This document shows, piece by piece, positions 274 to 9,732 of a stretch of 32,000 bases of DNA. Below the pieces are notes generated by a model. That model was not told where the DNA came from and made no database searches. It worked only from the letters and a program-made list of their open reading frames with translations. The stretch lies in assembly GCF_003945235.1 (NCBI RefSeq), contig NZ_RSDW01000001.1, positions 1,680,001 through 1,712,000 on the forward strand, given 5' to 3'. Both the position numbers and the translations under genes were made by a program. Position 1 is the stretch's first letter. Every line of letters starts with the position of its first letter. The stretch comes from Edaphobacter aggregans (GTDB lineage Bacteria > Acidobacteriota > Terriglobia > Terriglobales > Acidobacteriaceae).

Positions 274-681
274 ATGGCGGAGGTTTCGAAGAATCGGCTT
301 TGGTGGATCAACGCAACGGGGCTGATGTTCGCGATCCTGCAGAGTGCCTGCGCTGCGGTTCTGGCGGTCAGCGGCTTCCGCGTCTTGATTGGCTTAAGCT
401 CGCTGGCGATCGCTGCGGGAACGAGTGCTCCGGCAAAAGGATTTCACGCGGATGCCATCCGCATCCCGATGATGTTGTTCGCTTTGATCGGTGCGCTCGC
501 GAATCTCTACATGCTGTGGCGAGTACGGTCGCTACGAGCGCGGCCTGCTTCGCAATGGCGGATGCAACCGTTGTCTCCTACGAAGAAGCGCTCCGAACGA
601 CTGCAATTCGCGCTGGCGATTCTGACGTTGCTGGTACTGGCTGCGGAGTGGATCACGCACCCGATGATGCATCACGGCTAA
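274..681 (+). CDS. Hypothetical integral membrane protein (about 4 hydrophobic segments)
   Basis: 135-aa ORF with several hydrophobic stretches (LMFAILQSACAAVLAVSGF, MMLFALIGALANLYMLW, FALAILTLLVLAAEW). AGGAG-like sequence (aaaggagctaagg) upstream of the ATG. The competing 300-749 ORF in another frame is Arg/Cys-rich and looks non-coding. Confidence 0.6.
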   Translation: MAEVSKNRLWWINATGLMFAILQSACAAVLAVSGFRVLIGLSSLAIAAGTSAPAKGFHADAIRIPMMLFALIGALANLYMLWRVRSLRARPASQWRMQPLSPTKKRSERLQFALAILTLLVLAAEWITHPMMHHG

Positions 682-956
682 AGAGACGAATCGCTGCCAT
701 CGGTTGGAACAGCGGGCGGCCCGGCAAGAATGGCCTCGGTCAGGCGTGAGTGAAGACGTTCGCTGTAGCCGAGCGGAAGTTCGAAGATGCGGTCGTCAGC
801 AGTAAGAATCAGAATGTTTCGTGTCGAATCAAGAACAGCTGAGCAGATCTCGCAATGCTCAAGGTGGCGCTCTACATCGGCGCGAGTCGCGGTATCAAGC
901 GTGTTGTCCAAATAGCCGGAGATCTGGTCCCAGACGTGACTGCAGTTCAGAACCAT
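678..956 (-). CDS. Soluble zinc-binding (ZAS / zf-HC2) anti-sigma factor
   Basis: 92 aa with no transmembrane segment. Carries the H-x3-C-x2-C motif (H31 LEH C35 EI C38) plus an upstream C5. GAAGGAG lies 8 nt before the ATG. The start overlaps the stop of the upstream ECF sigma gene by 10 nt. Confidence 0.8.
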   Translation of the reverse strand: MVLNCSHVWDQISGYLDNTLDTATRADVERHLEHCEICSAVLDSTRNILILTADDRIFELPLGYSERLHSRLTEAILAGPPAVPTDGSDSSL

Positions 957-1567
957 GAGAAACTCCTTCGCGTTTCTGGCACTGCACTCTTCAGCTGCGG
1001 CGCGAGACTTTTCTGCAGCATCAGGCGAGCACGATGAAGCCGCATCTTAACCGAAGCAACCGTGATGCCGAGAGTTTCGGCGGTCTCCTGCACGTTGCGG
1101 TCTTCCATTTCACGCAGCACGAAGACCTCGCGGTAGGCCAGCGGAAGCGCCATCAAAGCCTGGCGGATGAGCGAGCGGACCTCCTGGCGTTCAAGAGCCT
1201 GCGAGGGAATCTCGCGCCAGTCAGTAAGTTGCATGGGGGTGACTTTGCCTTCGCGGTCGTCGTCGAGCGAATCGGTGAGCCCGGGCTGGATGCGGCGAAG
1301 GCGGCCGCGAGCCTCGTTGAGGACGATGCTGATGAGCCATGTACTGAAGCGGGCTTCGGCACGGAAGCGCCCGAGGTTTCGGTATGCCTTGAGGAATGCA
1401 TCCTGCGCGGCATCCTCAGCCTCAGCCTCATTGTGGAGCAGCGAAAGCGCCATGAGGTAAACGCTGCGCTCGTGCGGACGGATCAACTCGTGAAAGAGTT
1501 CGTGGTCGCCGGAGAGGATGTCCGCTATCATCCTGGGTTCGTCCCTGTCTCTAGCCGGTAACTGCAT
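947..1567 (-). CDS. ECF-type RNA polymerase sigma-70 family factor
   Basis: Region 2 (DAAQDAFLKAYRNLGRFRAEARFSTWLISIVLNEARGRLRR) and region 4 HTH (ETAETLGITVASVKMRLHRARLMLQ) are recognisable. GGGAGA lies 4-5 nt upstream of the ATG at 1567. An alternative start at 1531 (MIADIL) is possible. Confidence 0.9.
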   Translation of the reverse strand: MQLPARDRDEPRMIADILSGDHELFHELIRPHERSVYLMALSLLHNEAEAEDAAQDAFLKAYRNLGRFRAEARFSTWLISIVLNEARGRLRRIQPGLTDSLDDDREGKVTPMQLTDWREIPSQALERQEVRSLIRQALMALPLAYREVFVLREMEDRNVQETAETLGITVASVKMRLHRARLMLQKSLAPQLKSAVPETRRSFSWF

Positions 1568-2066
1568 CGTTCTCCCAATGCTCTTTGGTGCGGGTCTCGG
1601 AAGTTCGGAGCTTCTTGGCGATGAGAGCGTCCAGCGAGAAGAGGCCCGGGCCGAAGGCCAGAATCATGATCGCAGCGAAGAGAAAGGTGTAGGGATCGGC
1701 TCCGTAAAATTTGCTGGGGTTACTGAAGATCGAGAAGAGTGCCTCGCGATCGGATGTCCAGTATGCAACAAACATCGATCCTGTGAGCAGGAACGCGATG
1801 GGGCGCGAAGCCAGTCCAAGGATAAGCAAGATTCCACCGAAGAATTCAAGCCCGGATACGAAGTGGGCGCTTAACGCCGGGAATGGGATATTGAGTGAAG
1901 TAAAAAAGTCGACGGTACGCGCCTGATTATGCAGCTTACCCCAACCGGTTTGCACGAACTGCCAGCCCCAGTAGAGTCGTACAGCGAGCAGCAGGGGCGA
2001 GCAGAGCTTTTCCGCGACCTTGCAAAAAGCGGCGTACCAAGCGGCGAGACGATGGATGAGCTTCAT
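1551..2066 (-). CDS. DoxX family membrane protein (BufD-like position in the operon)
   Basis: 171 aa with four hydrophobic helices and a DoxX-like sequence (LLLAVRLYWGWQFVQTGWGKL... GLEFFGGILLILGLASR). Its ATG overlaps the upstream gene's stop as ATGA (2063-2066). Confidence 0.88.
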   Translation of the reverse strand: MKLIHRLAAWYAAFCKVAEKLCSPLLLAVRLYWGWQFVQTGWGKLHNQARTVDFFTSLNIPFPALSAHFVSGLEFFGGILLILGLASRPIAFLLTGSMFVAYWTSDREALFSIFSNPSKFYGADPYTFLFAAIMILAFGPGLFSLDALIAKKLRTSETRTKEHWENDAVTG

Positions 2067-2965
2067 AAGGTCTCCGTGGTGGCGCGTGGTGCGCAGAGCC
2101 AGCCCATCTGCATCCAGTGATGGAAAGCGGATTGGATGATGGCTGGACGATCGGATTCCGGCGTTGTGCTATCGGCGAAGGCGGCTTCGATCGCTTCGCC
2201 GAGAGATTGACCCTCTTCGAGAGATTGAAGCAGCAGAAAGTCTTCGCGCGAGAGACGCTTGTAATAGACGGTATCGTCATGACGGTGAATGGCGAGATAG
2301 ATCTGCTGCTGCGACGGCCGCCGAGAACGCGTGCGTCGAACGACATGAATACCGACGGCATTGCTGGCCTGCGTGCCAGATGGCTGCGAGCCTTCGCGCA
2401 CGGCAAGTAGAGCGTCGTCGACGGCATAGGGCGCGGTCAACAGGCGCAGGTAGGGTTGCAGGGTGATGTGGGAGTCGCCGTCGAGGCTGGCGATCTCGTC
2501 AGCAGCAAGAGGTTCGCGGCTCTCATTGTCGAAGGCCTCGATGTGCGCCCATTCGAGAGCGGCCATCGCAATTGCGGATTCCGTGTTTGGAGCCGTGTAT
2601 TGAGGATTCTCCTTAAGCCAATCGACAAGTGAGGAGCCCAGATTACGCAATGTGAAGGAGCGCGAGGGGTGAGCCTCAAGATAGGCACGCATCAGCGCTT
2701 GAAATTTGCGGCTACCGACGATGGATTTGAGGCCAGGAAAGTCCTCCTCGAACGAGGAAAAAAGACGGAACCAGTATTGCCGGTTGTAAATCTCCAGGCG
2801 CTCAAACGACGTCAGCCGATCGTTGGGACGGATGAATGCGCCAGCCTCATCCGCAACCGAGGGGCACGAGGCATCACGCTTGCGCATCTGCTCGTTGAAT
2901 GTGAGCGGCCGCATAACGGCAGCAGCCATGCGTCTCTGAAGAAGATGAAGATCGGAGCCGATCAT
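2063..2965 (-). CDS. DUF2063 domain protein (MbnC/BufC-like partner of the DUF692 enzyme)
   Basis: LEIYNRQYWFRLFSSFEEDFPGLKSIVGSRKFQALMRAYLEAHPSRSFTLRNLG matches the characteristic DUF2063 N-terminal region. I chose the ATG at 2965, which forms an ATGA overlap with the DUF692 stop (2962-2965). The 105-nt upstream extension in the ORF track would overlap the DUF692 gene. Confidence 0.85.
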   Translation of the reverse strand: MIGSDLHLLQRRMAAAVMRPLTFNEQMRKRDASCPSVADEAGAFIRPNDRLTSFERLEIYNRQYWFRLFSSFEEDFPGLKSIVGSRKFQALMRAYLEAHPSRSFTLRNLGSSLVDWLKENPQYTAPNTESAIAMAALEWAHIEAFDNESREPLAADEIASLDGDSHITLQPYLRLLTAPYAVDDALLAVREGSQPSGTQASNAVGIHVVRRTRSRRPSQQQIYLAIHRHDDTVYYKRLSREDFLLLQSLEEGQSLGEAIEAAFADSTTPESDRPAIIQSAFHHWMQMGWLCAPRATTETL

Positions 2966-3825
2966 GCGGTCACCGCGAGAGGAGCCGCCTGCTCGTGTCT
3001 TCGCAAATAACGGTTGGCCTTCAGGGCTTCGGCATGGACCTCCTCGAAGGACGGGATGGAATCGTCCCACTCGAGCAGCGTCGCAGTCGGCCCGCAGCGT
3101 TCAATCGCGCGAGCATAGAGTCCCCACACTGGATCTAGAACCGGATGGTCGTGCGTGTCGAGAATGTACTTCTCAAACTTTGAGTGGCCGGCGATGTGGA
3201 TCTGGGCGACGCGATCTGCTGGTATGGCCTCAACATACTGGCGCGGGTTGAAGTTATGGTTCTGGGAGGAGACATAGATGTTGTTCACATCAAGCAATAT
3301 GCCGCAATCGGCCTGCTCGACGACCTCGTTGAGGAACTCCCACTCCGTCATCTCGGAGACATGAAACTCCGCGTAGCTGCTGACGTTTTCGACTGCTATG
3401 GGTACTTCAAGAAAGTCCTGGGCCTGTCGAATCCTTTCGGCAGTGTTACGTGCGGCCTCGAAGGTGTAGGGCATCGGAAGAAGGTCGTGAGTATAGGTGC
3501 CATCCACGCTGCCCCAGCACAGATGGTCGGAGAGCCACGGAGTTCCAGTGCGACGGACAAGAGCCTTTAGGCGGCGCAGATGCTCACGCGACAATGGTTC
3601 AGCCGAGCCGAAGTACATCGAGACACCGTGCTGTACGACGCGGTATTGGTCAAGAATACTGTCGAGAACGGTAAGCGGACGGCCACCGTCGATCATGTAG
3701 TTCTCGGAGATAATCTCGAACCAATCGACGACGGGCTTCTTCTCGAGAATGTGACGATAATGAGGAACACGAAGACCAATGCCGACTCCGTATTCCGTAA
3801 AACCGTTGAAACGATTCGCTGGCAT
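2962..3825 (-). CDS. DUF692 / MNIO (multinuclear non-heme iron oxidase; MbnB/TglH/ChrH/BufB family) RiPP-modifying enzyme
   Basis: Typical DUF692 blocks are present: GVGIGLR, WFEIISENYM, HGVSMYFGS, PWLSDHLCW, ENVSSY, LLDVNNIYVS, QIHIAGH, TLLEWD. I prefer the ATG at 3825 (GAGG 6 nt upstream) over the TTG at 3831. Confidence 0.95.
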   Translation of the reverse strand: MPANRFNGFTEYGVGIGLRVPHYRHILEKKPVVDWFEIISENYMIDGGRPLTVLDSILDQYRVVQHGVSMYFGSAEPLSREHLRRLKALVRRTGTPWLSDHLCWGSVDGTYTHDLLPMPYTFEAARNTAERIRQAQDFLEVPIAVENVSSYAEFHVSEMTEWEFLNEVVEQADCGILLDVNNIYVSSQNHNFNPRQYVEAIPADRVAQIHIAGHSKFEKYILDTHDHPVLDPVWGLYARAIERCGPTATLLEWDDSIPSFEEVHAEALKANRYLRRHEQAAPLAVTA

Positions 3826-3859
3826 GTGCAACCTCGGAAATCAACTGGAGAAAGGGAGT

Positions 3860-3893
3860 GCTCCGCCGCTCGGGTGGAGTGACGCGGCGGAGC
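3860..3893 (-). promoter_or_regulatory. Intercistronic GC-rich stem-loop between precursor gene and DUF692 gene
   Basis: Perfect 10-bp inverted repeat GCTCCGCCGC (3860-3869) / GCGGCGGAGC (3884-3893) with a 14-nt loop. On the transcribed strand it is followed by ACTCCCTTTCTCC. It sits 9 nt after the precursor stop and about 30 nt before the DUF692 RBS. Confidence 0.55.
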
Positions 3894-3901
3894 GCTGAGG
3901 T

Positions 3902-4195
3902 TTACGCCGCGGGTGGCTTGGAGCCATCAGTTGCGCAGCCGCCCTTACCCTTGCAGCTGTTCTTGCCTTTGCAGCCATTGTCGCTGGTCTTGCAACCGCC
4001 CTTGCCCTTGCAGTCGTTTTTGCCTTTACAGGAGTGCTTGTCCTTATCGGCGGCCACGAAAGAGGCCGAGGAGAAGGCAAGCTGCCCGAACTGCGCACCG
4101 TTGTGGGTGGTGGATGCATGGATCGGTGTTGCGGAACCACTGAGCAGTCCGGTGACGGCTGCACTCAACATCATTGCTTTCATGGACGTCTTCAT
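3902..4195 (-). CDS. Sec-exported six-cysteine Lys/Gly-rich small protein; candidate RiPP precursor (bufferin-like, six-Cys type)
   Basis: 97 aa from the ATG at 4195 (AGGAG 8 nt upstream; the track start at 4201 is a TTG). Signal peptide MKTSMKAMMLSAAVTGLLSGSATPIHA. The C-terminal core is HS-CKGKNDCKGKGGC-KTSDNG-CKGKNSCKGKGGC-ATDGSKPPAA. It is the first gene of the DUF692 operon. Confidence 0.85.
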   Translation of the reverse strand: MKTSMKAMMLSAAVTGLLSGSATPIHASTTHNGAQFGQLAFSSASFVAADKDKHSCKGKNDCKGKGGCKTSDNGCKGKNSCKGKGGCATDGSKPPAA

Positions 4196-4216
4196 TCGCA
4201 AATCTCCTTTAAGGTG

Positions 4217-4288
4217 ATGGTTCTGTTACATGGTTATGTTACGTTCCATCTGGCCCGTTAGATTGCGGGCGTAAAAAACGGTAACAGA
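4217..4288. repeat. Tandem 13-mers plus an inverted copy in the divergent promoter region
   Basis: ATGGTTCTGTTAC (4217-4229) is immediately followed by ATGGTTATGTTAC (4230-4242), with 1 mismatch. GTAACAGA (4281-4288) is the reverse complement of TCTGTTAC (4222-4229). All three lie between the precursor RBS and the divergent 4365 gene. Confidence 0.6.
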
Positions 4289-4364
4289 GTTTCACGAAAT
4301 TATTTAGGGGGACATTGGGAGAGCGAGGATACTGTTTGGGAAAGACGACGCATCTAACTCGGAT

Positions 4365-5984
4365 GTGATTGATATTCCGCAGGAAAGAGCCGAAAGGGTT
4401 CCGCGACGCAAGCGTGGTGTGTGGGGTTGGATTGCAATCGTTTTATTGTTCGCAGTCATTGTTTTATTCGGGACGATAGAGTGGATGATCCACCGCGCAG
4501 AGCCCATTTTGAAGGGCCGCGTCATCGAAACGTTGAGCACTCGTTTCGAGAGTCGTGTGGAGATGGACAATTTTCACGTTTCACCGCTCAAGGGCCTGGA
4601 GGTTTCAGGAGACGGCCTGCGAATCTATCCAACCGATGAGGTGGTGGCCGCTGGAGCGAAAGATCCGTTGATCTCGCTGGGCCATTTTTCATTTCATGTA
4701 AATCTGTCTGGACTGTTTCAGAAACCGATGCATGTAGGTACGGTGCACGTCACCGATATGGCGATCACCATCCCGCCGCGCGAGATGCGCCAGCAGGGGC
4801 CGAAGTCAGAAAAGCGGTTCGGCAAGATCAAAATCGTCGTCGACGAGATCGTCTGCGATGGCTCGAAGCTAATGATCGAGACTGCCAAGCCCGACAAGGA
4901 TCCGAAGGAATTCGAACTCAGCCACATTGTGATGCGTAACGTTGGGCCGAACGATCCATGGCAGTATGACGCGACGCTGGTCAACGCAATTCCAAAGGGC
5001 GATATTCACGCAGTAGGAACGTTCGGCCCGTGGGTCAATGAGAGCCCTGGCGATTCGACCGTGACCGGGAAATACACGTTCGAGCACGCTGACCTGAATA
5101 CGATCAAAGGTATCGGCGGGATGCTGTCTTCCACGGGCGAGTTCAGCGGACAGTTGAACAGGATCGTTGTGGATGGAACAACGGATACGCCGGATTTCTC
5201 GCTGGACACGGCAAACCACAAGATGCCGCTACACACGAAATTCCATGCGATTGTGGACGGAACTAGCGGCGACACGTATCTCCAGCCAGTGGATGCAAAG
5301 CTGCGCGGTTCGGAGTTTACCTGCAACGGCGCCATCATCAACGTGAAGGGCAAAGGGCACATTATCGACCTGGATGTGAATGTCCCTAATGGCCGCATAC
5401 AGGACTTTCTGGAACTAGCGATCAAGACACAGCCGGTCATCATGACAGGACGCCTTGCGATGAAGACGAAACTGCATATCCGCCCGGGGGGGGAGAGCGT
5501 CACACAAAGGATCGGATTGAAGGGCGGCTTTACACTGCGGGCAATTCACTTCACGAATCCAGAAGTGCAGGACAAAGTAGATATGCTGAGTCTCCGCGCG
5601 CGTGGTGAGGCGAAAGAGGCCAAGGCAGGCGCGGAGGATGTGAACTCGCAGATGCGCGGACAGTTTGTCATGCAGAGTGGCAGGCTGAGCTTTAGCCAAC
5701 TGAATTACACATTGCCGGGCGCAGACGTGAACCTGGCCGGTGTGTACTCTCTGGATGGAGACGAATTTGACTTCACCGGTAAGGTACGCACGAAGGCGGC
5801 GCTATCGAATATGGTGGCGACCTGGTGGAAGTCATGGCTGCTGAAGCCCGTCGACCCCTTCTTCAAAAAGAATGGCGCCGGCGCAGAAATTCCCGTCAAG
5901 ATTACTGGAACAAAGGGAGCGCCGAAGTTCGGCCTGGATCTACACCATAAGGATAAGAGCAACGAAGCAAGCCCCACCGAGTAG
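4365..5984 (+). CDS. N-terminally membrane-anchored large periplasmic protein, AsmA-like / DUF748-like (family tentative)
   Basis: 539 aa with a GTG start. Basic N-terminus followed by one TM helix (WIAIVLLFAVIVLFGTIEWMI), then a long beta-rich, Cys-poor domain. This layout resembles AsmA/TamB-type proteins. The family assignment is from memory only. Confidence 0.7.
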   Translation: MIDIPQERAERVPRRKRGVWGWIAIVLLFAVIVLFGTIEWMIHRAEPILKGRVIETLSTRFESRVEMDNFHVSPLKGLEVSGDGLRIYPTDEVVAAGAKDPLISLGHFSFHVNLSGLFQKPMHVGTVHVTDMAITIPPREMRQQGPKSEKRFGKIKIVVDEIVCDGSKLMIETAKPDKDPKEFELSHIVMRNVGPNDPWQYDATLVNAIPKGDIHAVGTFGPWVNESPGDSTVTGKYTFEHADLNTIKGIGGMLSSTGEFSGQLNRIVVDGTTDTPDFSLDTANHKMPLHTKFHAIVDGTSGDTYLQPVDAKLRGSEFTCNGAIINVKGKGHIIDLDVNVPNGRIQDFLELAIKTQPVIMTGRLAMKTKLHIRPGGESVTQRIGLKGGFTLRAIHFTNPEVQDKVDMLSLRARGEAKEAKAGAEDVNSQMRGQFVMQSGRLSFSQLNYTLPGADVNLAGVYSLDGDEFDFTGKVRTKAALSNMVATWWKSWLLKPVDPFFKKNGAGAEIPVKITGTKGAPKFGLDLHHKDKSNEASPTE

Positions 5985-6032: not shown

Positions 6033-6821
6033 TTAGAAGCTGTTGTCGTCGTTGCCAGAGTCGAAGCCACCGTCGGAGCTGTCACCAAAATCAGCAGAAT
6101 CGTCGGCAAAATTATCTGCCGTGTCGTTGGTGTCGTCGCTGCCCATCAGGCTATCTCCGTGATCATCGTTGTCCACCGCCTCAGAGAAGCGCGATTCGCC
6201 GCGACGATCTTCGATGTCTGGGGAGAGATGCCCGGAGTGCTCCGAAGGAGTGGCGTCGCCGTAGTAGTTGTTGACGATCTCTTCGGGGCGGTTCGATTCG
6301 CCAAACCCGCCAAAGCCCGAGCCATAACCTCCACCATGACCGAAGCCATGCATAAGGCTCTCAATGCCTTCAAAAGCCAGTGCGCCGGCTGCAACGCCGG
6401 TAGCAGTCTGCAAAGCCGAGCGGAGAAAGCCGCCAGACTGAGGCGCGCCGTATCCTGGAACGGATGGCTGCCCCCCGTAGACAACGGGAGTGTACTGCGG
6501 CTGAGCAGGTAGCGGAGGCGGGGGGGCCGGGCGTGAGGGCTCGTCGTCGCGGCCGAGCAGGTTGCCGAGGAAGCTCGTCGCATGTTTCGGCTGCTGTCGA
6601 ACGGCATCAAGTTGGCCGCGTGCGTCGGCGAGTTGTTTTTGCGCCTGATCGAGCGCGTACTGCTGCACGAGCACAGTTTGAGCGAGGATGTAGAGCGCAT
6701 CCGGATTACGTCCCAGGGTCTGCTGCAGAAACTGCGCGGCGTCAGGATCCTTCTCCTGAAGTTGGGTGCTGTTGATGCGCTCAGTGAGGTCTTGAAGCAT
6801 CTGCTGTTCTTGCGCGGTCAT
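6033..6821 (-). CDS. DUF2076 domain protein with Gly-rich middle and poly-acidic tail
   Basis: The N-terminus MTAQEQQMLQDLTERINSTQLQEKDPDAAQFLQQTLGRNPDALYILAQTVLVQQYALDQAQKQL is typical of DUF2076. GAGGAG RBS upstream. C-terminal D/N/S/G-rich tail. Confidence 0.8.
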   Translation of the reverse strand: MTAQEQQMLQDLTERINSTQLQEKDPDAAQFLQQTLGRNPDALYILAQTVLVQQYALDQAQKQLADARGQLDAVRQQPKHATSFLGNLLGRDDEPSRPAPPPPLPAQPQYTPVVYGGQPSVPGYGAPQSGGFLRSALQTATGVAAGALAFEGIESLMHGFGHGGGYGSGFGGFGESNRPEEIVNNYYGDATPSEHSGHLSPDIEDRRGESRFSEAVDNDDHGDSLMGSDDTNDTADNFADDSADFGDSSDGGFDSGNDDNSF

Positions 6822-6916: not shown

Positions 6917-8158
<1,242 letters not shown>

Positions 8159-8208
8159 GGGCTCTCCAGCGATGCAACAGCAACGGCAAAGCAAAGACGA
8201 TTTGCGCC

Positions 8209-9732
8209 TTAGTTGAAGCCTCTTCGGGTACGGTTGCGAGCAGCCTCGTCGCGTTCTATCTCACGTTCACGCATGCGCTCGGCATATTGACTGGCTTGAT
8301 CGACGCGCTGTTTCTTTTCCGCCGCAGTGAAGCTGCGCTCCTCGGTACGGCTGATGCGCTTATGGGCGGTCATGCCTTCAAGAAGAAACTCGGCCGCACT
8401 CACGGCAACCTCAGGCGACGACTTACCGTTGATCTTCAGCGGCGACAACTTTTCAAACAGGCCCTGAATCTGTTGCAGCTCAGCAAGCGAGCCTGAAGAG
8501 GGTTGCGTATCGTTGAGCTGAACAGTGCCACCAAGATTGAACCACTGCTCGATCTGTTGCGTGTCGGTACCGGCAAAGTACTTGTCGAAGATGCCCGCGA
8601 CACTGGTGCGAATAATCTCTCGGATGACCGTATCGGCACCGCGCATCTCGCCCTCATACTCTAGCTCGATCTTGCCTGTGATGCCAGGCAGCGCAGCGTA
8701 AATGTCGCCAACGCGGGGGACGACGAGCTCCTCGTCATGAAGCAACGCACGGCGTTCCGCATTCGAAAGCACCAGCTCCATCGTGCTGATGGGCAGCCTC
8801 TGCGAGACTCCCGAACGCTTATCGACCTTCTTATCCTCACGTGCGGAGAATGCGATCTGCTCGATGATCTGTCGGATGTAATGTGGGATCTCGATATTGG
8901 ACGCGGGCCGCTCGGACCATGCCTCCTGCGCTGTAATGCTAATGCCTTCCTCGACATCCTCGGGATAGTGCGTGCGAATCTCCGAGCCGATGCGGTCCTT
9001 AAGCGGGGTAACGATCTTACCGCGTGCAGTGTAGTCCTCAGGGTTGGCGCTGAACACGATGGCAACATCAAGCGGCAAGCGCACGGGGTAGCCCTTAATC
9101 TGCACATCGCCCTCCTGCATGATGTTGAAGAGCGCAACCTGAATCTTGCCGGCAAGGTCGGGGAGTTCGTTGATCGCGAAGATGCCACGATTGGCGCGAG
9201 GTAGCAGGCCATAGTGCATGGTCAGTTCAGACCCAAGATCCTGATTGCTGCGCGCCGCTTTAATCGGGTCGATATCGCCCACAAGGTCGGCCACCGTCAC
9301 ATCAGGCGTGGCAAGCTTTTCGACAAAGCGGTCATCCGGCGTAAGCCAAGCGATCGGCGTGTCGTCTCCCATCTTCGCAATCAGGTCGCGCGCAAACTTC
9401 GAGATAGGAGCGTACGGGTTGTCGCGGGTTTCCGCACCCGCAACATAGGGAGTCGCAGGATCAAGCAGCGTAGTCAGAGACCGAAGAATGCGCGACTTCG
9501 CCTGTCCGCGAAGACCGAGCAGAATGAAATTGTGGCGCGAGAGGACAGCATTCACAATCTGCGGAACCACCGTGTCCTGGTATCCGACAATCCCCGGAAA
9601 GAGCGTTTCCTTCGACCGCAGCTTGGCAATCAGATTCTCGCGAAGCTCGTCTTTGACGCTGCGGGCAAGGCGTTGGGGAGTAAACTCGCTGGCCCGGAGG
9701 GCGCCTAATGTGGTCGGAAGAGGAGTCGCCAT
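8209..9732 (-). CDS. ChlI/BchI-like AAA+ ATPase (often annotated as Mg-chelatase-like or sigma-54-interaction-domain protein)
   Basis: Collinear with BchI/ChlI: LLGLRGQAKSR (P-loop position), RGIFAINELPDL (Walker B position), VQIKGYPVRLPLDVAIVFSANPEDY, PLKDRIG. Long C-terminal extension. Confidence 0.88.
   Translation of the reverse strand: MATPLPTTLGALRASEFTPQRLARSVKDELRENLIAKLRSKETLFPGIVGYQDTVVPQIVNAVLSRHNFILLGLRGQAKSRILRSLTTLLDPATPYVAGAETRDNPYAPISKFARDLIAKMGDDTPIAWLTPDDRFVEKLATPDVTVADLVGDIDPIKAARSNQDLGSELTMHYGLLPRANRGIFAINELPDLAGKIQVALFNIMQEGDVQIKGYPVRLPLDVAIVFSANPEDYTARGKIVTPLKDRIGSEIRTHYPEDVEEGISITAQEAWSERPASNIEIPHYIRQIIEQIAFSAREDKKVDKRSGVSQRLPISTMELVLSNAERRALLHDEELVVPRVGDIYAALPGITGKIELEYEGEMRGADTVIREIIRTSVAGIFDKYFAGTDTQQIEQWFNLGGTVQLNDTQPSSGSLAELQQIQGLFEKLSPLKINGKSSPEVAVSAAEFLLEGMTAHKRISRTEERSFTAAEKKQRVDQASQYAERMREREIERDEAARNRTRRGFN

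Follow-up and report, generated by a model that had tools for sequence, protein, structure and literature searches.

Peptides of the bufferin class are described in papers on the bufferins (2024, PMC11626156) and the captophorins (2026, PMC13097082) and in a survey of the landscape of multinuclear non-heme iron oxidases (MNIOs) from 2025. In the Buf1 and Buf2 classes, Cys-derived 5-thiooxazoles bind copper in the periplasm and give copper protection (PMC11626156), and "6 or 12 Cys" is the defining signature of the BUF_6/12Cys (Buf2) class (PMC11626156; PMC12452194). Mass spectrometry of Caulobacter Buf2 has shown that the four central Cys are modified, each with a change of -4 Da (PMC11626156), while CysI and CysVI are unmodified and likely disulfide-linked; the peptide absorbs ultraviolet light near 305 nm (PMC11626156; PMC13097082). 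A second close system is the Neisseria meningitidis operon NMB2140-2145, which is polycistronic and autoregulated, and in which the cysteines of the zinc-binding anti-sigma (ZAS) protein are required (PMC2893595). Here we describe a 32-kb window (the whole stretch analyzed; all coordinates are those of the window) of the Edaphobacter aggregans genome (GCF_003945235.1, contig NZ_RSDW01000001.1, 1,680,001-1,712,000, forward strand). It contains what we read, with a probability of about 0.8, as a bufferin-2-like ("Cys-Lys captophorin") operon for a ribosomally made, post-translationally modified peptide, bufABCD, fused to a regulator pair consisting of an extracytoplasmic function (ECF) sigma factor and a ZAS protein. 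We are less sure of which signal acts, copper or oxidant, and of how many Cys are modified.

The operon, at 678-4195, comprises six co-directional minus-strand open reading frames (ORFs), established from the ORF list and by reading the strand directly. Its parts, and the one convergent gene that borders it, are the following.

3902-4195, minus strand: bufA2-like precursor, 97 aa from ATG 4195 (NF050166 match below cut-off)
2962-3825, minus strand: bufB, MNIO (DUF692) maturase, 287 aa (PF05114, NF050167)
2063-2965, minus strand: bufC, DUF2063 partner (PME type 1), 300 aa (PF09836)
1551-2066, minus strand: bufD, DoxX-family membrane protein, 171 aa (PF07681)
947-1567, minus strand: ECF (group IV) sigma factor, 206 aa (Sigma70_r2, Sigma70_r4_2, TIGR02937)
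678-956, minus strand: soluble ZAS anti-sigma, 92 aa (PF13490 zf-HC2)
4258-4286, minus strand: predicted ECF-type promoter, TGTTACC-N17-TCTAA (motif conservation)
3860-3893, minus strand: GC-rich stem-loop after the precursor gene (minimum free energy, and a hairpin in related loci)
274-681, plus strand: convergent membrane protein, function unassigned by families, 135 aa (orthologues beside the ZAS gene)

A preliminary description of the window had reported six translationally coupled genes, and all four overlaps are seen on direct reading. ATGA overlaps join the bufB stop to the bufC start (2965-2962) and the bufC stop to the bufD start (2066-2063), the sigma gene begins at ATG 1567 inside the DoxX gene (stop 1553-1551) for a 17-nt overlap, and the ZAS gene begins at ATG 956 inside the sigma gene (stop 949-947) for one of 10 nt. 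An alternative sigma start at ATG 1531 could abolish the DoxX/sigma overlap. The precursor gene is separated from the MNIO gene by 76 nt; an AAGGAG ribosome-binding site lies 8 nt before ATG 4195, and a GAGG 6 nt before ATG 3825.

Profile hidden Markov models recovered each of the families named in the preliminary description (DUF692, DUF2063, DoxX, ECF sigma and ZAS). The MNIO matches PF05114 MbnB_TglH_ChrH with E 1.7e-108 (362 bits against a cut-off of 25) and NF050167 MNIO_BufB with 353.3 bits, above the curated equivalog cut-off of 310, while it fails the HvfB, ApyH, ChrH and MbnB models (MbnB 39 bits against a cut-off of 325). All five DUF692 blocks listed earlier, GVGIGLR, WFEIISENYM, PWLSDHLCW, ENVSSY and QIHIAGH, are in the translation of 2962-3825. 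The nearest solved structure is 3BWW of Histophilus somni (E 1.6e-49), which we take to be a Lys-Cys-type enzyme. The motifs SDHL, VEN, DVNNIY, IHIAGH, DTH and LLE.D are identical in the alignment of the two, and the metal ligands presumably lie among them. At one position the two enzymes differ: the window MNIO has Asp255 (LLEWDD) where 3BWW, a solved relative from the Neisseria-type group, has Phe (LLERDF), and LEWDD is present in 80 of 80 related MNIOs. In the MNIOs of Cys-Lys captophorins, Asp replaces Phe at the FonB-Phe250 position, and BufB2 Asp251 has been modelled against the substrate Lys (PMC13097082). On the strength of published homologues, the bufB product is predicted to convert Cys to 5-thiooxazole.

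The two genes that follow encode the expected companions. BufC matches PF09836 DUF2063 (E 2e-16, 60.4 bits against a cut-off of 27.2) and is borderline for NGO1945_C (PF22106, RRE-like; 26.8 bits against 27); phmmer found no sequence match to it in the PDB, 3DEE included. BufD matches PF07681 DoxX (E 2.6e-19) and has three stretches with a mean hydropathy above 1.6.

The precursor has the layout of a signal peptide, a variable linker and a conserved core, HSCKGKNDCKGKGGCKTSDNGCKGKNSCKGKGGCATDGSKPP. Read by eye, the signal peptide is of the Sec type, with an n-region MKTSMK (2 Lys), a 16-residue h-region AMMLSAAVTGLLSGSA and a c-region TPIHA|S; the maximum 19-residue hydropathy is just 1.31, and the cleavage pattern xxA|[SQT] is kept in the relatives of the precursor. 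As the preliminary description had it, the Cys of this 97-aa protein are confined to the repeat core; they occur solely at positions 56, 62, 68, 75, 81 and 87, with spacings of 6, 6, 7, 6 and 6, in a core of 37 residues that also holds 9 Lys and 9 Gly. The core is an internal duplication, CKGKNxCKGKGGC x2, giving five Cys-Lys sites and one Cys-Ala. All six Cys are invariant or nearly so across 43 aligned relatives, one of which (P0059) is a duplicated 12-Cys form. Database relatives of the precursor number 6664, the closest named ones being from Edaphobacter. BufA2 is the sole family matched by the precursor and by all 43 aligned relatives; for the precursor itself the match to NF050166 Cu_RiPP_BufA2 has E 1.9e-9 and 37.6 bits over profile positions 19-65 of 79.

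As canonical BufA2 references we used two plasmid genes, of which L081 from Legionella pneumophila scores 80.5 bits and L082 from Asticcacaulis 100.1 bits. Cys I-V of both align with Cys 56, 62, 68, 75 and 81 of the window precursor. The sixth Cys differs in place: canonical CysVI lies 11-12 residues past CysV in a C-terminal segment, and window Cys87 is 6 past CysV, inside the second CKGKGGC. In the references a Lys follows each of the four central Cys, with one exception (CysIII-Ala in L082), and neither CysI nor CysVI precedes a Lys. From this alignment and the Caulobacter mass spectrometry (PMC11626156), the four Cys that are modified in canonical BufA2 coincide with the Cys-Lys ones. The window precursor has five such sites where the canonical peptide has four, and two products are possible: four thiooxazoles with a Cys56-Cys87 disulfide (-18 Da), or five thiooxazoles with a free thiol (-20 Da). 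Judged by its sequence, the precursor is a member of the BUF_6/12Cys (Buf2, "Cys-Lys captophorin") class already in the literature, and only its duplicated sub-type, without the canonical C-terminal CysVI, is uncharacterised. The preliminary description had called the chemistry of the product not worked out; this stands for the duplicated sub-type alone, the class chemistry having been published for Buf2.

Among the closest known systems is Caulobacter vibrioides buf2 (bufA2B2C2, CCNA_02999-03001). The window operon and buf2 share a signal-peptide precursor with six Cys (twelve if duplicated) in which a Lys follows the central Cys, a BufB-equivalog MNIO with Asp at the specificity site, as in the Cys-Lys captophorin class, a DUF2063 partner and the order A-B-C. 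They differ in the sixth Cys, which in the window belongs to the second CKGKGGC module, and in the added genes: the window operon also has DoxX, ECF sigma and ZAS genes, whereas in Caulobacter buf2 doxX is absent and control by SigF/NrsF is exerted in trans. Methanobactin MbnABC is a further parallel, sharing the MNIO superfamily and the conversion of Cys of a ribosomal peptide to a copper ligand; the window has no MbnC, the methanobactin precursor has a leader and not a Sec signal, and its product is a secreted scavenger and not a periplasmic buffer.

The related set comprises 80 genome loci with MNIOs 80-94% identical, nearly all from Acidobacteriota/Terriglobia and a few binned as Verrucomicrobiota. 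For the precursor, the MNIO and the anti-sigma alike, Edaphobacter and other Acidobacteriaceae supply the nearest relatives, and we found no link between DUF692 and Acidobacteriaceae genera in the literature searched. By the preliminary description, the small ORF would be fortuitous if homologous DUF692 loci never had a Cys-repeat ORF upstream; the related loci contradict this, as 77 of these 80 carry a precursor ORF immediately upstream of their MNIO gene, and the three that have none are short or truncated. The precursor-MNIO-DUF2063 core recurs across the set, with DoxX in nearly all loci, and the precursors fall into 6-Cys (52 loci), 5-Cys (8), 4-Cys (16) and 10-Cys (1) classes. We also note that five MNIOs (L029, L059, L066, L071 and L074), 80-82% identical, are on contigs binned as Verrucomicrobiota or Opitutaceae; either the cluster may have been transferred horizontally or these are mis-binned acidobacterial contigs.

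Of the 80 loci, 23 have orthologues of the sigma/ZAS pair linked to the cluster, with linkage scored within 6 kb. Eight loci (type I: L001-L006, L070 and L072) are co-directional like the window, 11 have bufABC with a divergent DoxX-sigma-ZAS operon (type II), three have bufABCD with a divergent sigma-ZAS operon (type III), and L033 has the sigma module upstream on the same strand, outside these types. ZAS relatives taken from the protein database again adjoin buf genes, in Terriglobus saanensis L083 (type II) and in L085. That the linkage survives rearrangement argues for function. Precursor type varies over the same loci: type I loci have 6-Cys precursors throughout, the 5-Cys forms are in sigma-less loci, and 4-Cys precursors that have lost the third and fourth Cys (CKGKNDCKGQGGGK..GKNDCKGKGGC) are found in every type II locus but one (10 of 11) and in L033 (together L012, L018, L019, L027, L028, L033, L036, L040, L047, L051 and L062).

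The sigma factor matches Sigma70_r2 (E 1e-15), Sigma70_r4_2 (E 3e-14) and TIGR02937 sigma70-ECF (99.9 bits against a cut-off of 42.9), and among solved structures it comes closest to SigW and AlgU-type ECF sigmas (E ~1e-25). The ZAS protein matches PF13490 zf-HC2 (E 2.9e-11), with a weak RsrA match and no PDB sequence match up to E 1. It has no transmembrane segment (maximum 19-residue hydropathy 1.04), and among the best 120 of its 2258 database relatives the proteins are 77-102 aa long and carry zf-HC2. Its candidate zinc ligands are Cys5, His31, Cys35 and Cys38, an H-x3-C-x2-C motif with the first Cys 26 residues before the His, and these Cys/His residues are invariant across the 23 orthologues of the related loci. 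The spacing is that of Streptomyces coelicolor RsrA (Cys11/His37/Cys41/Cys44) and N. meningitidis MseR (Cys4/His30/Cys34/Cys37), cytoplasmic ZAS proteins of the redox type (PMC2893595).

Upstream of the precursor gene is a candidate promoter with a -35 element TGTTACC (4286-4280), a 17-nt spacer and a -10 element TCTAA (4262-4258), ending 62 nt before the precursor ATG. The pattern TGTWACY-N17-TCNAA has this single match in the 32-kb window and 0 in 100 shuffles, and a looser pattern, enriched in sigma-bearing loci, has 58 matches in 905 kb of related loci against 5-16 in shuffles. At -35 most related loci have GTAACC, where the window, with GTTACC, has one base changed. Of 23 loci with the sigma/ZAS pair, 21 have the motif 40-260 nt upstream of the precursor, against 7 of 57 without the pair (Fisher p = 2.3e-11); it precedes the precursor in 8/8 type I and 11/11 type II loci, and a second copy precedes the separate divergent DoxX-sigma-ZAS operon in 9/11 type II loci. 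This ECF-type motif, which tracks the presence of the pair, strengthens the proposal in the preliminary description of a sigma/anti-sigma switch belonging to the operon itself. A search for further ECF motif copies across the window gave none beyond 4258-4286, relaxed matches falling inside genes; a sigma-70 consensus scan of 400-4500 gave no promoter, and terminator-like matches in the same interval were no more frequent than in shuffles.

The interval from DoxX to the precursor holds additional genes in some related loci: an AhpC/TSA-Redoxin gene (L036:4748-5326, minus strand), DUF1223 genes (L019:4660-5457, plus strand, and L027), and a third type, an unknown protein of 320-350 aa, with insertions also at L028:4399-5457 (plus strand) and L083:2958-4765. 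In the loci checked (L036, L019, L027, L028 and L047) the inserted genes carry a GTAACC-N17-TCnnA motif, which suggests a small envelope thiol-redox regulon for the linked sigma factor. We read the motif as the putative binding site of that sigma factor, which would then be autoregulated and direct a small local regulon of thiol-redox character. As a separate observation, many sigma-less loci (L039, L046, L055, L076, L079 and others) have a different ECF-like box, (T)GAACCAATCC-N16-CGTAC, upstream of the precursor, which suggests that they may be controlled by another ECF sigma encoded elsewhere.

Several described regulatory arrangements resemble this one. The Neisseria rpoE operon (NMB2140-NMB2145; NGO1948-1943) is built from the same six families, DoxX, small precursor, MNIO, DUF2063, ECF sigma and soluble ZAS, and, compared by its published description, the ligands of MseR have the spacing found in the window protein and both -10 elements contain TCTAA (PMC2893595); the Neisseria sigma-E -10 element is CGTCTAAH. 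Its precursor is of the EGKCG (Lys-Cys) repeat type, and DoxX, fourth in the window operon, heads the Neisseria one. Caulobacter buf1ABCD, with SigF/NrsF, shares the bufABCD order including DoxX, ECF-sigma control and a near-identical -35 (PMC3511200), and differs in a DUF2282 precursor with four Cys, the membrane anti-sigma NrsF and a -10 CGAA at N16; the SigF box is GTAACC-N16-CGAA (PMC3511200). The shared -35 GTAACC box made SigF orthology a candidate for the window sigma factor, and this was rejected: the window protein shares only 19% identity with the SigF-type sigma that adjoins NrsF in Asticcacaulis L082, its best NCBIfam models are other ones and it has no NrsF partner (Pfam and NCBIfam profiles gave no match to the NrsF membrane anti-sigma in the window). 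In Haemophilus influenzae, a small ZAS and an ECF sigma (RpoE2/HrsE) likewise control a DoxX/MNIO/DUF2063 operon; this doxX-hvf (oxazolin) system differs in that the regulator is unlinked from the operon, the precursor is of the EGKCG type and the inducer shown is hypochlorous acid (HOCl) (PMC7907618).

It has been stated as a generalisation that sigma-factor/NrsF genes are found in Buf1 and not in Buf2 clusters (PMC12452194). The window, 22 relatives and an Asticcacaulis plasmid are exceptions, so the generalisation needs qualification. On that plasmid (pASDW145_1 of Asticcacaulis sp. DW145, 211489-215257; L082) the order is BufA2-BufB-BufC-sigma-NrsF-NrsF, divergent from buf1ABCD.

Between the precursor and MNIO genes is a hairpin, GCUCCGCCGC...GCGGCGGAGC, that begins 8 nt past the precursor stop and has a 10-bp GC stem and no U-tract (3893-3860; minimum free energy -31.3 kcal/mol, z = -2.7). 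Related loci have a hairpin of unrelated sequence at the same position, with z < -2 in 43/62 and U-tracts in some. The hairpin at 3860-3893 was not called an intrinsic terminator and matches no Rfam family. Hairpins that keep the precursor message in excess are common in peptide operons, and this one is likely an attenuator (partial termination) or a stabiliser of the mRNA with the same effect.

Taken together, the operon would work as follows. At rest, the sigma factor would be held in the cytoplasm by the Zn-bound anti-sigma. Copper and/or oxidants such as HOCl, as the thiol-reactive signal, would attack the zinc site at Cys5/Cys35/Cys38 and free the sigma factor, which would transcribe the operon from TGTTACC-N17-TCTAA and thereby make more sigma and more anti-sigma, a positive loop with a built-in reset. 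The hairpin after bufA would let the precursor message exceed the enzyme messages. In the cytoplasm BufB and BufC would oxidise the Cys that precede Lys into 5-thiooxazoles, the peptide would be exported by Sec and its signal peptide cut after IHA27, and the 70-residue Lys/Gly-rich product would chelate periplasmic Cu(I)/Cu(II), with DoxX as an accessory membrane protein. The gene families, the anatomy of the operon, the conservation of promoter motif and hairpin, the Asp specificity residue and the kept linkage of the sigma/ZAS pair are observed here; thiooxazole formation, copper binding, the inducing signal and the part played by the hairpin are carried over from published homologues.

Several points weigh against this interpretation. 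The precursor's 37.6 bits are below the curated BufA2 equivalog cut-off of 60 and cover the profile in part, and, aligned to L081/L082, it has neither the canonical CysVI nor the C-terminal segment; the low score arises because the precursor consists of a three-Cys module in duplicate and is missing the canonical C-terminal part. AlphaFold2 with the 43-sequence alignment was uninformative (predicted local distance difference test 50.6, predicted template modelling score 0.22), so that the window precursor is without a confident fold, whereas canonical BufA2 is reported as a predicted small fold. BufC scores 60.7 bits against HvfC and BufD 61.6 bits against HvfX, below the equivalog cut-offs of 142 and 80. 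The sigma/ZAS pair is not found within 6 kb in 57 of the 80 related loci, and the regulator is thus not obligatory for the cluster. As to the inducing signal, oxidants left sigma-E expression unchanged in the case of Neisseria MseR (PMC2893595). Finally, where transcription starts, that it reads through the hairpin and that all six genes are transcribed together are predictions from the DNA.

The best-surviving alternative keeps the biosynthesis and changes its role, from copper buffering to defence of the envelope against oxidant or thiol stress (HOCl, peroxide): the ZAS would serve as an RsrA/MseR/HrsE-type redox sensor and the thiol-rich peptide, with DoxX, as a periplasmic redox buffer, with which copper binding is compatible. 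The RsrA-like spacing of the ZAS ligands agrees with this, as does the motif before the AhpC/TSA-Redoxin (L036) and DUF1223 (L019, L027) genes inserted in clusters; on HOCl exposure H. influenzae RpoE2/HrsE induces a homologous doxX-MNIO operon (PMC7907618), a paper that also cites a tie between DoxX and thiol homeostasis in Mycobacterium tuberculosis. Yet the characterised bufferins give copper tolerance and are induced by copper and not by Fe, Zn or Mn (PMC11626156), thiooxazole peptides of the class generally bind Cu (PMC13097082), and no msrAB or other classic oxidant-repair gene with the motif is present in the window. We consider oxidant defence in place of copper buffering unlikely, though a serious contender.

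More speculatively, the acidobacterial CKGKNxCKGKGGC x2 peptides may form a chemically distinct bufferin sub-class, with five thiooxazoles and a free thiol (-20 Da) or other cross-links, acting as a largely disordered, Lys/Gly-rich, multi-site Cu(I) sponge and not as a small folded protein, and with the ZAS as a direct cytoplasmic sensor of copper or copper-thiol stress; we hold this as a tentative and rather doubtful extension of the bufferin-2-like reading. We know of no ZAS protein for which copper or copper-induced thiol stress has yet been shown to be the direct signal.

If instead the small ORF encoded an ordinary secreted, Cys-rich, metallothionein-like protein and the enzymes acted elsewhere, its score below the BufA2 cut-off and the lack of a confident predicted fold would be natural. 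Its place directly upstream of the MNIO gene in 77/80 loci with invariant Cys-Lys motifs, the MNIO Asp reported to pair with the substrate Lys (PMC13097082) and the coincidence of the four modified Cys of canonical BufA2 with its Cys-Lys ones (PMC11626156) make this very improbable. That the sigma/anti-sigma pair is a mere neighbour with an unrelated regulon, the buf genes being driven by another factor, would suit the 57/80 loci without the pair within 6 kb, many with other boxes (GAACCAATCC...CGTAC), but is scarcely credible given the 17- and 10-nt gene overlaps with no promoter or terminator between, the co-variation of the motif with the pair (p = 2e-11) and its duplication before the sigma operon when that is separate, and the linkage kept through three rearrangements.

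Beside the operon, ORF 274-681 (plus strand) is convergent with the ZAS gene, their stop regions overlapping by 4 nt. It has no Pfam or NCBIfam match, and several stretches with hydropathy above 1.6 mark it as a multi-pass membrane protein. Orthologues adjoin the ZAS gene in 17 sigma/ZAS-bearing loci of any arrangement and in T. saanensis, and one is also present in L048, where DoxX alone was detected; the ORF may be part of the module. Its C-terminal HPMMHHG was considered as a copper motif and dropped, as one His only is kept among orthologues. On the other side, the DUF748-like gene at 4365-5984 is common only to the closest relatives L001-L006, and is thus local synteny outside the system. 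Farther on are a DUF2076 protein with a Gly/Asp-rich acidic tail (6033-6821, minus strand) and, at 6917-9732 (minus strand), a tandem von Willebrand factor A (VWA)-domain protein and AAA-type ATPase (a MoxR/VWA-like pair). The context is one of ordinary chromosomal genes, namely DUF2076, VWA and AAA ATPase, a ParA/NUBPL-type ATPase and hrcA-grpE-dnaJ, and scans of the whole window with Rfam (gathering thresholds) and for tRNAs were empty.

The bufferin class has been known since 2024 and the six-family operon is known from N. meningitidis, so the additions made here are small: an uncharacterised precursor sub-type, a predicted promoter with its regulon for the ECF/ZAS pair of an acidobacterium, and a hairpin conserved after the precursor gene. 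The general picture of what such operons do is unchanged by the locus. Among peptides made by MNIOs, bufferins and captophorins form the largest group, and as a copper defence of bacteria they have been recognised only recently. In acidic soils Acidobacteriaceae are dominant and metals move more readily, and soil metagenomes contain thousands of relatives of this precursor family (the 6664 matches). The Cys pattern of the sub-type allows the rule that a Cys followed by Lys is modified to be tested, and its natural 6-, 5- and 4-Cys variants allow a comparison of which Cys are modified. The locus is a compact, self-contained test case, in which the promoter motif and the sigma/anti-sigma pair open a way to the inducing signal.

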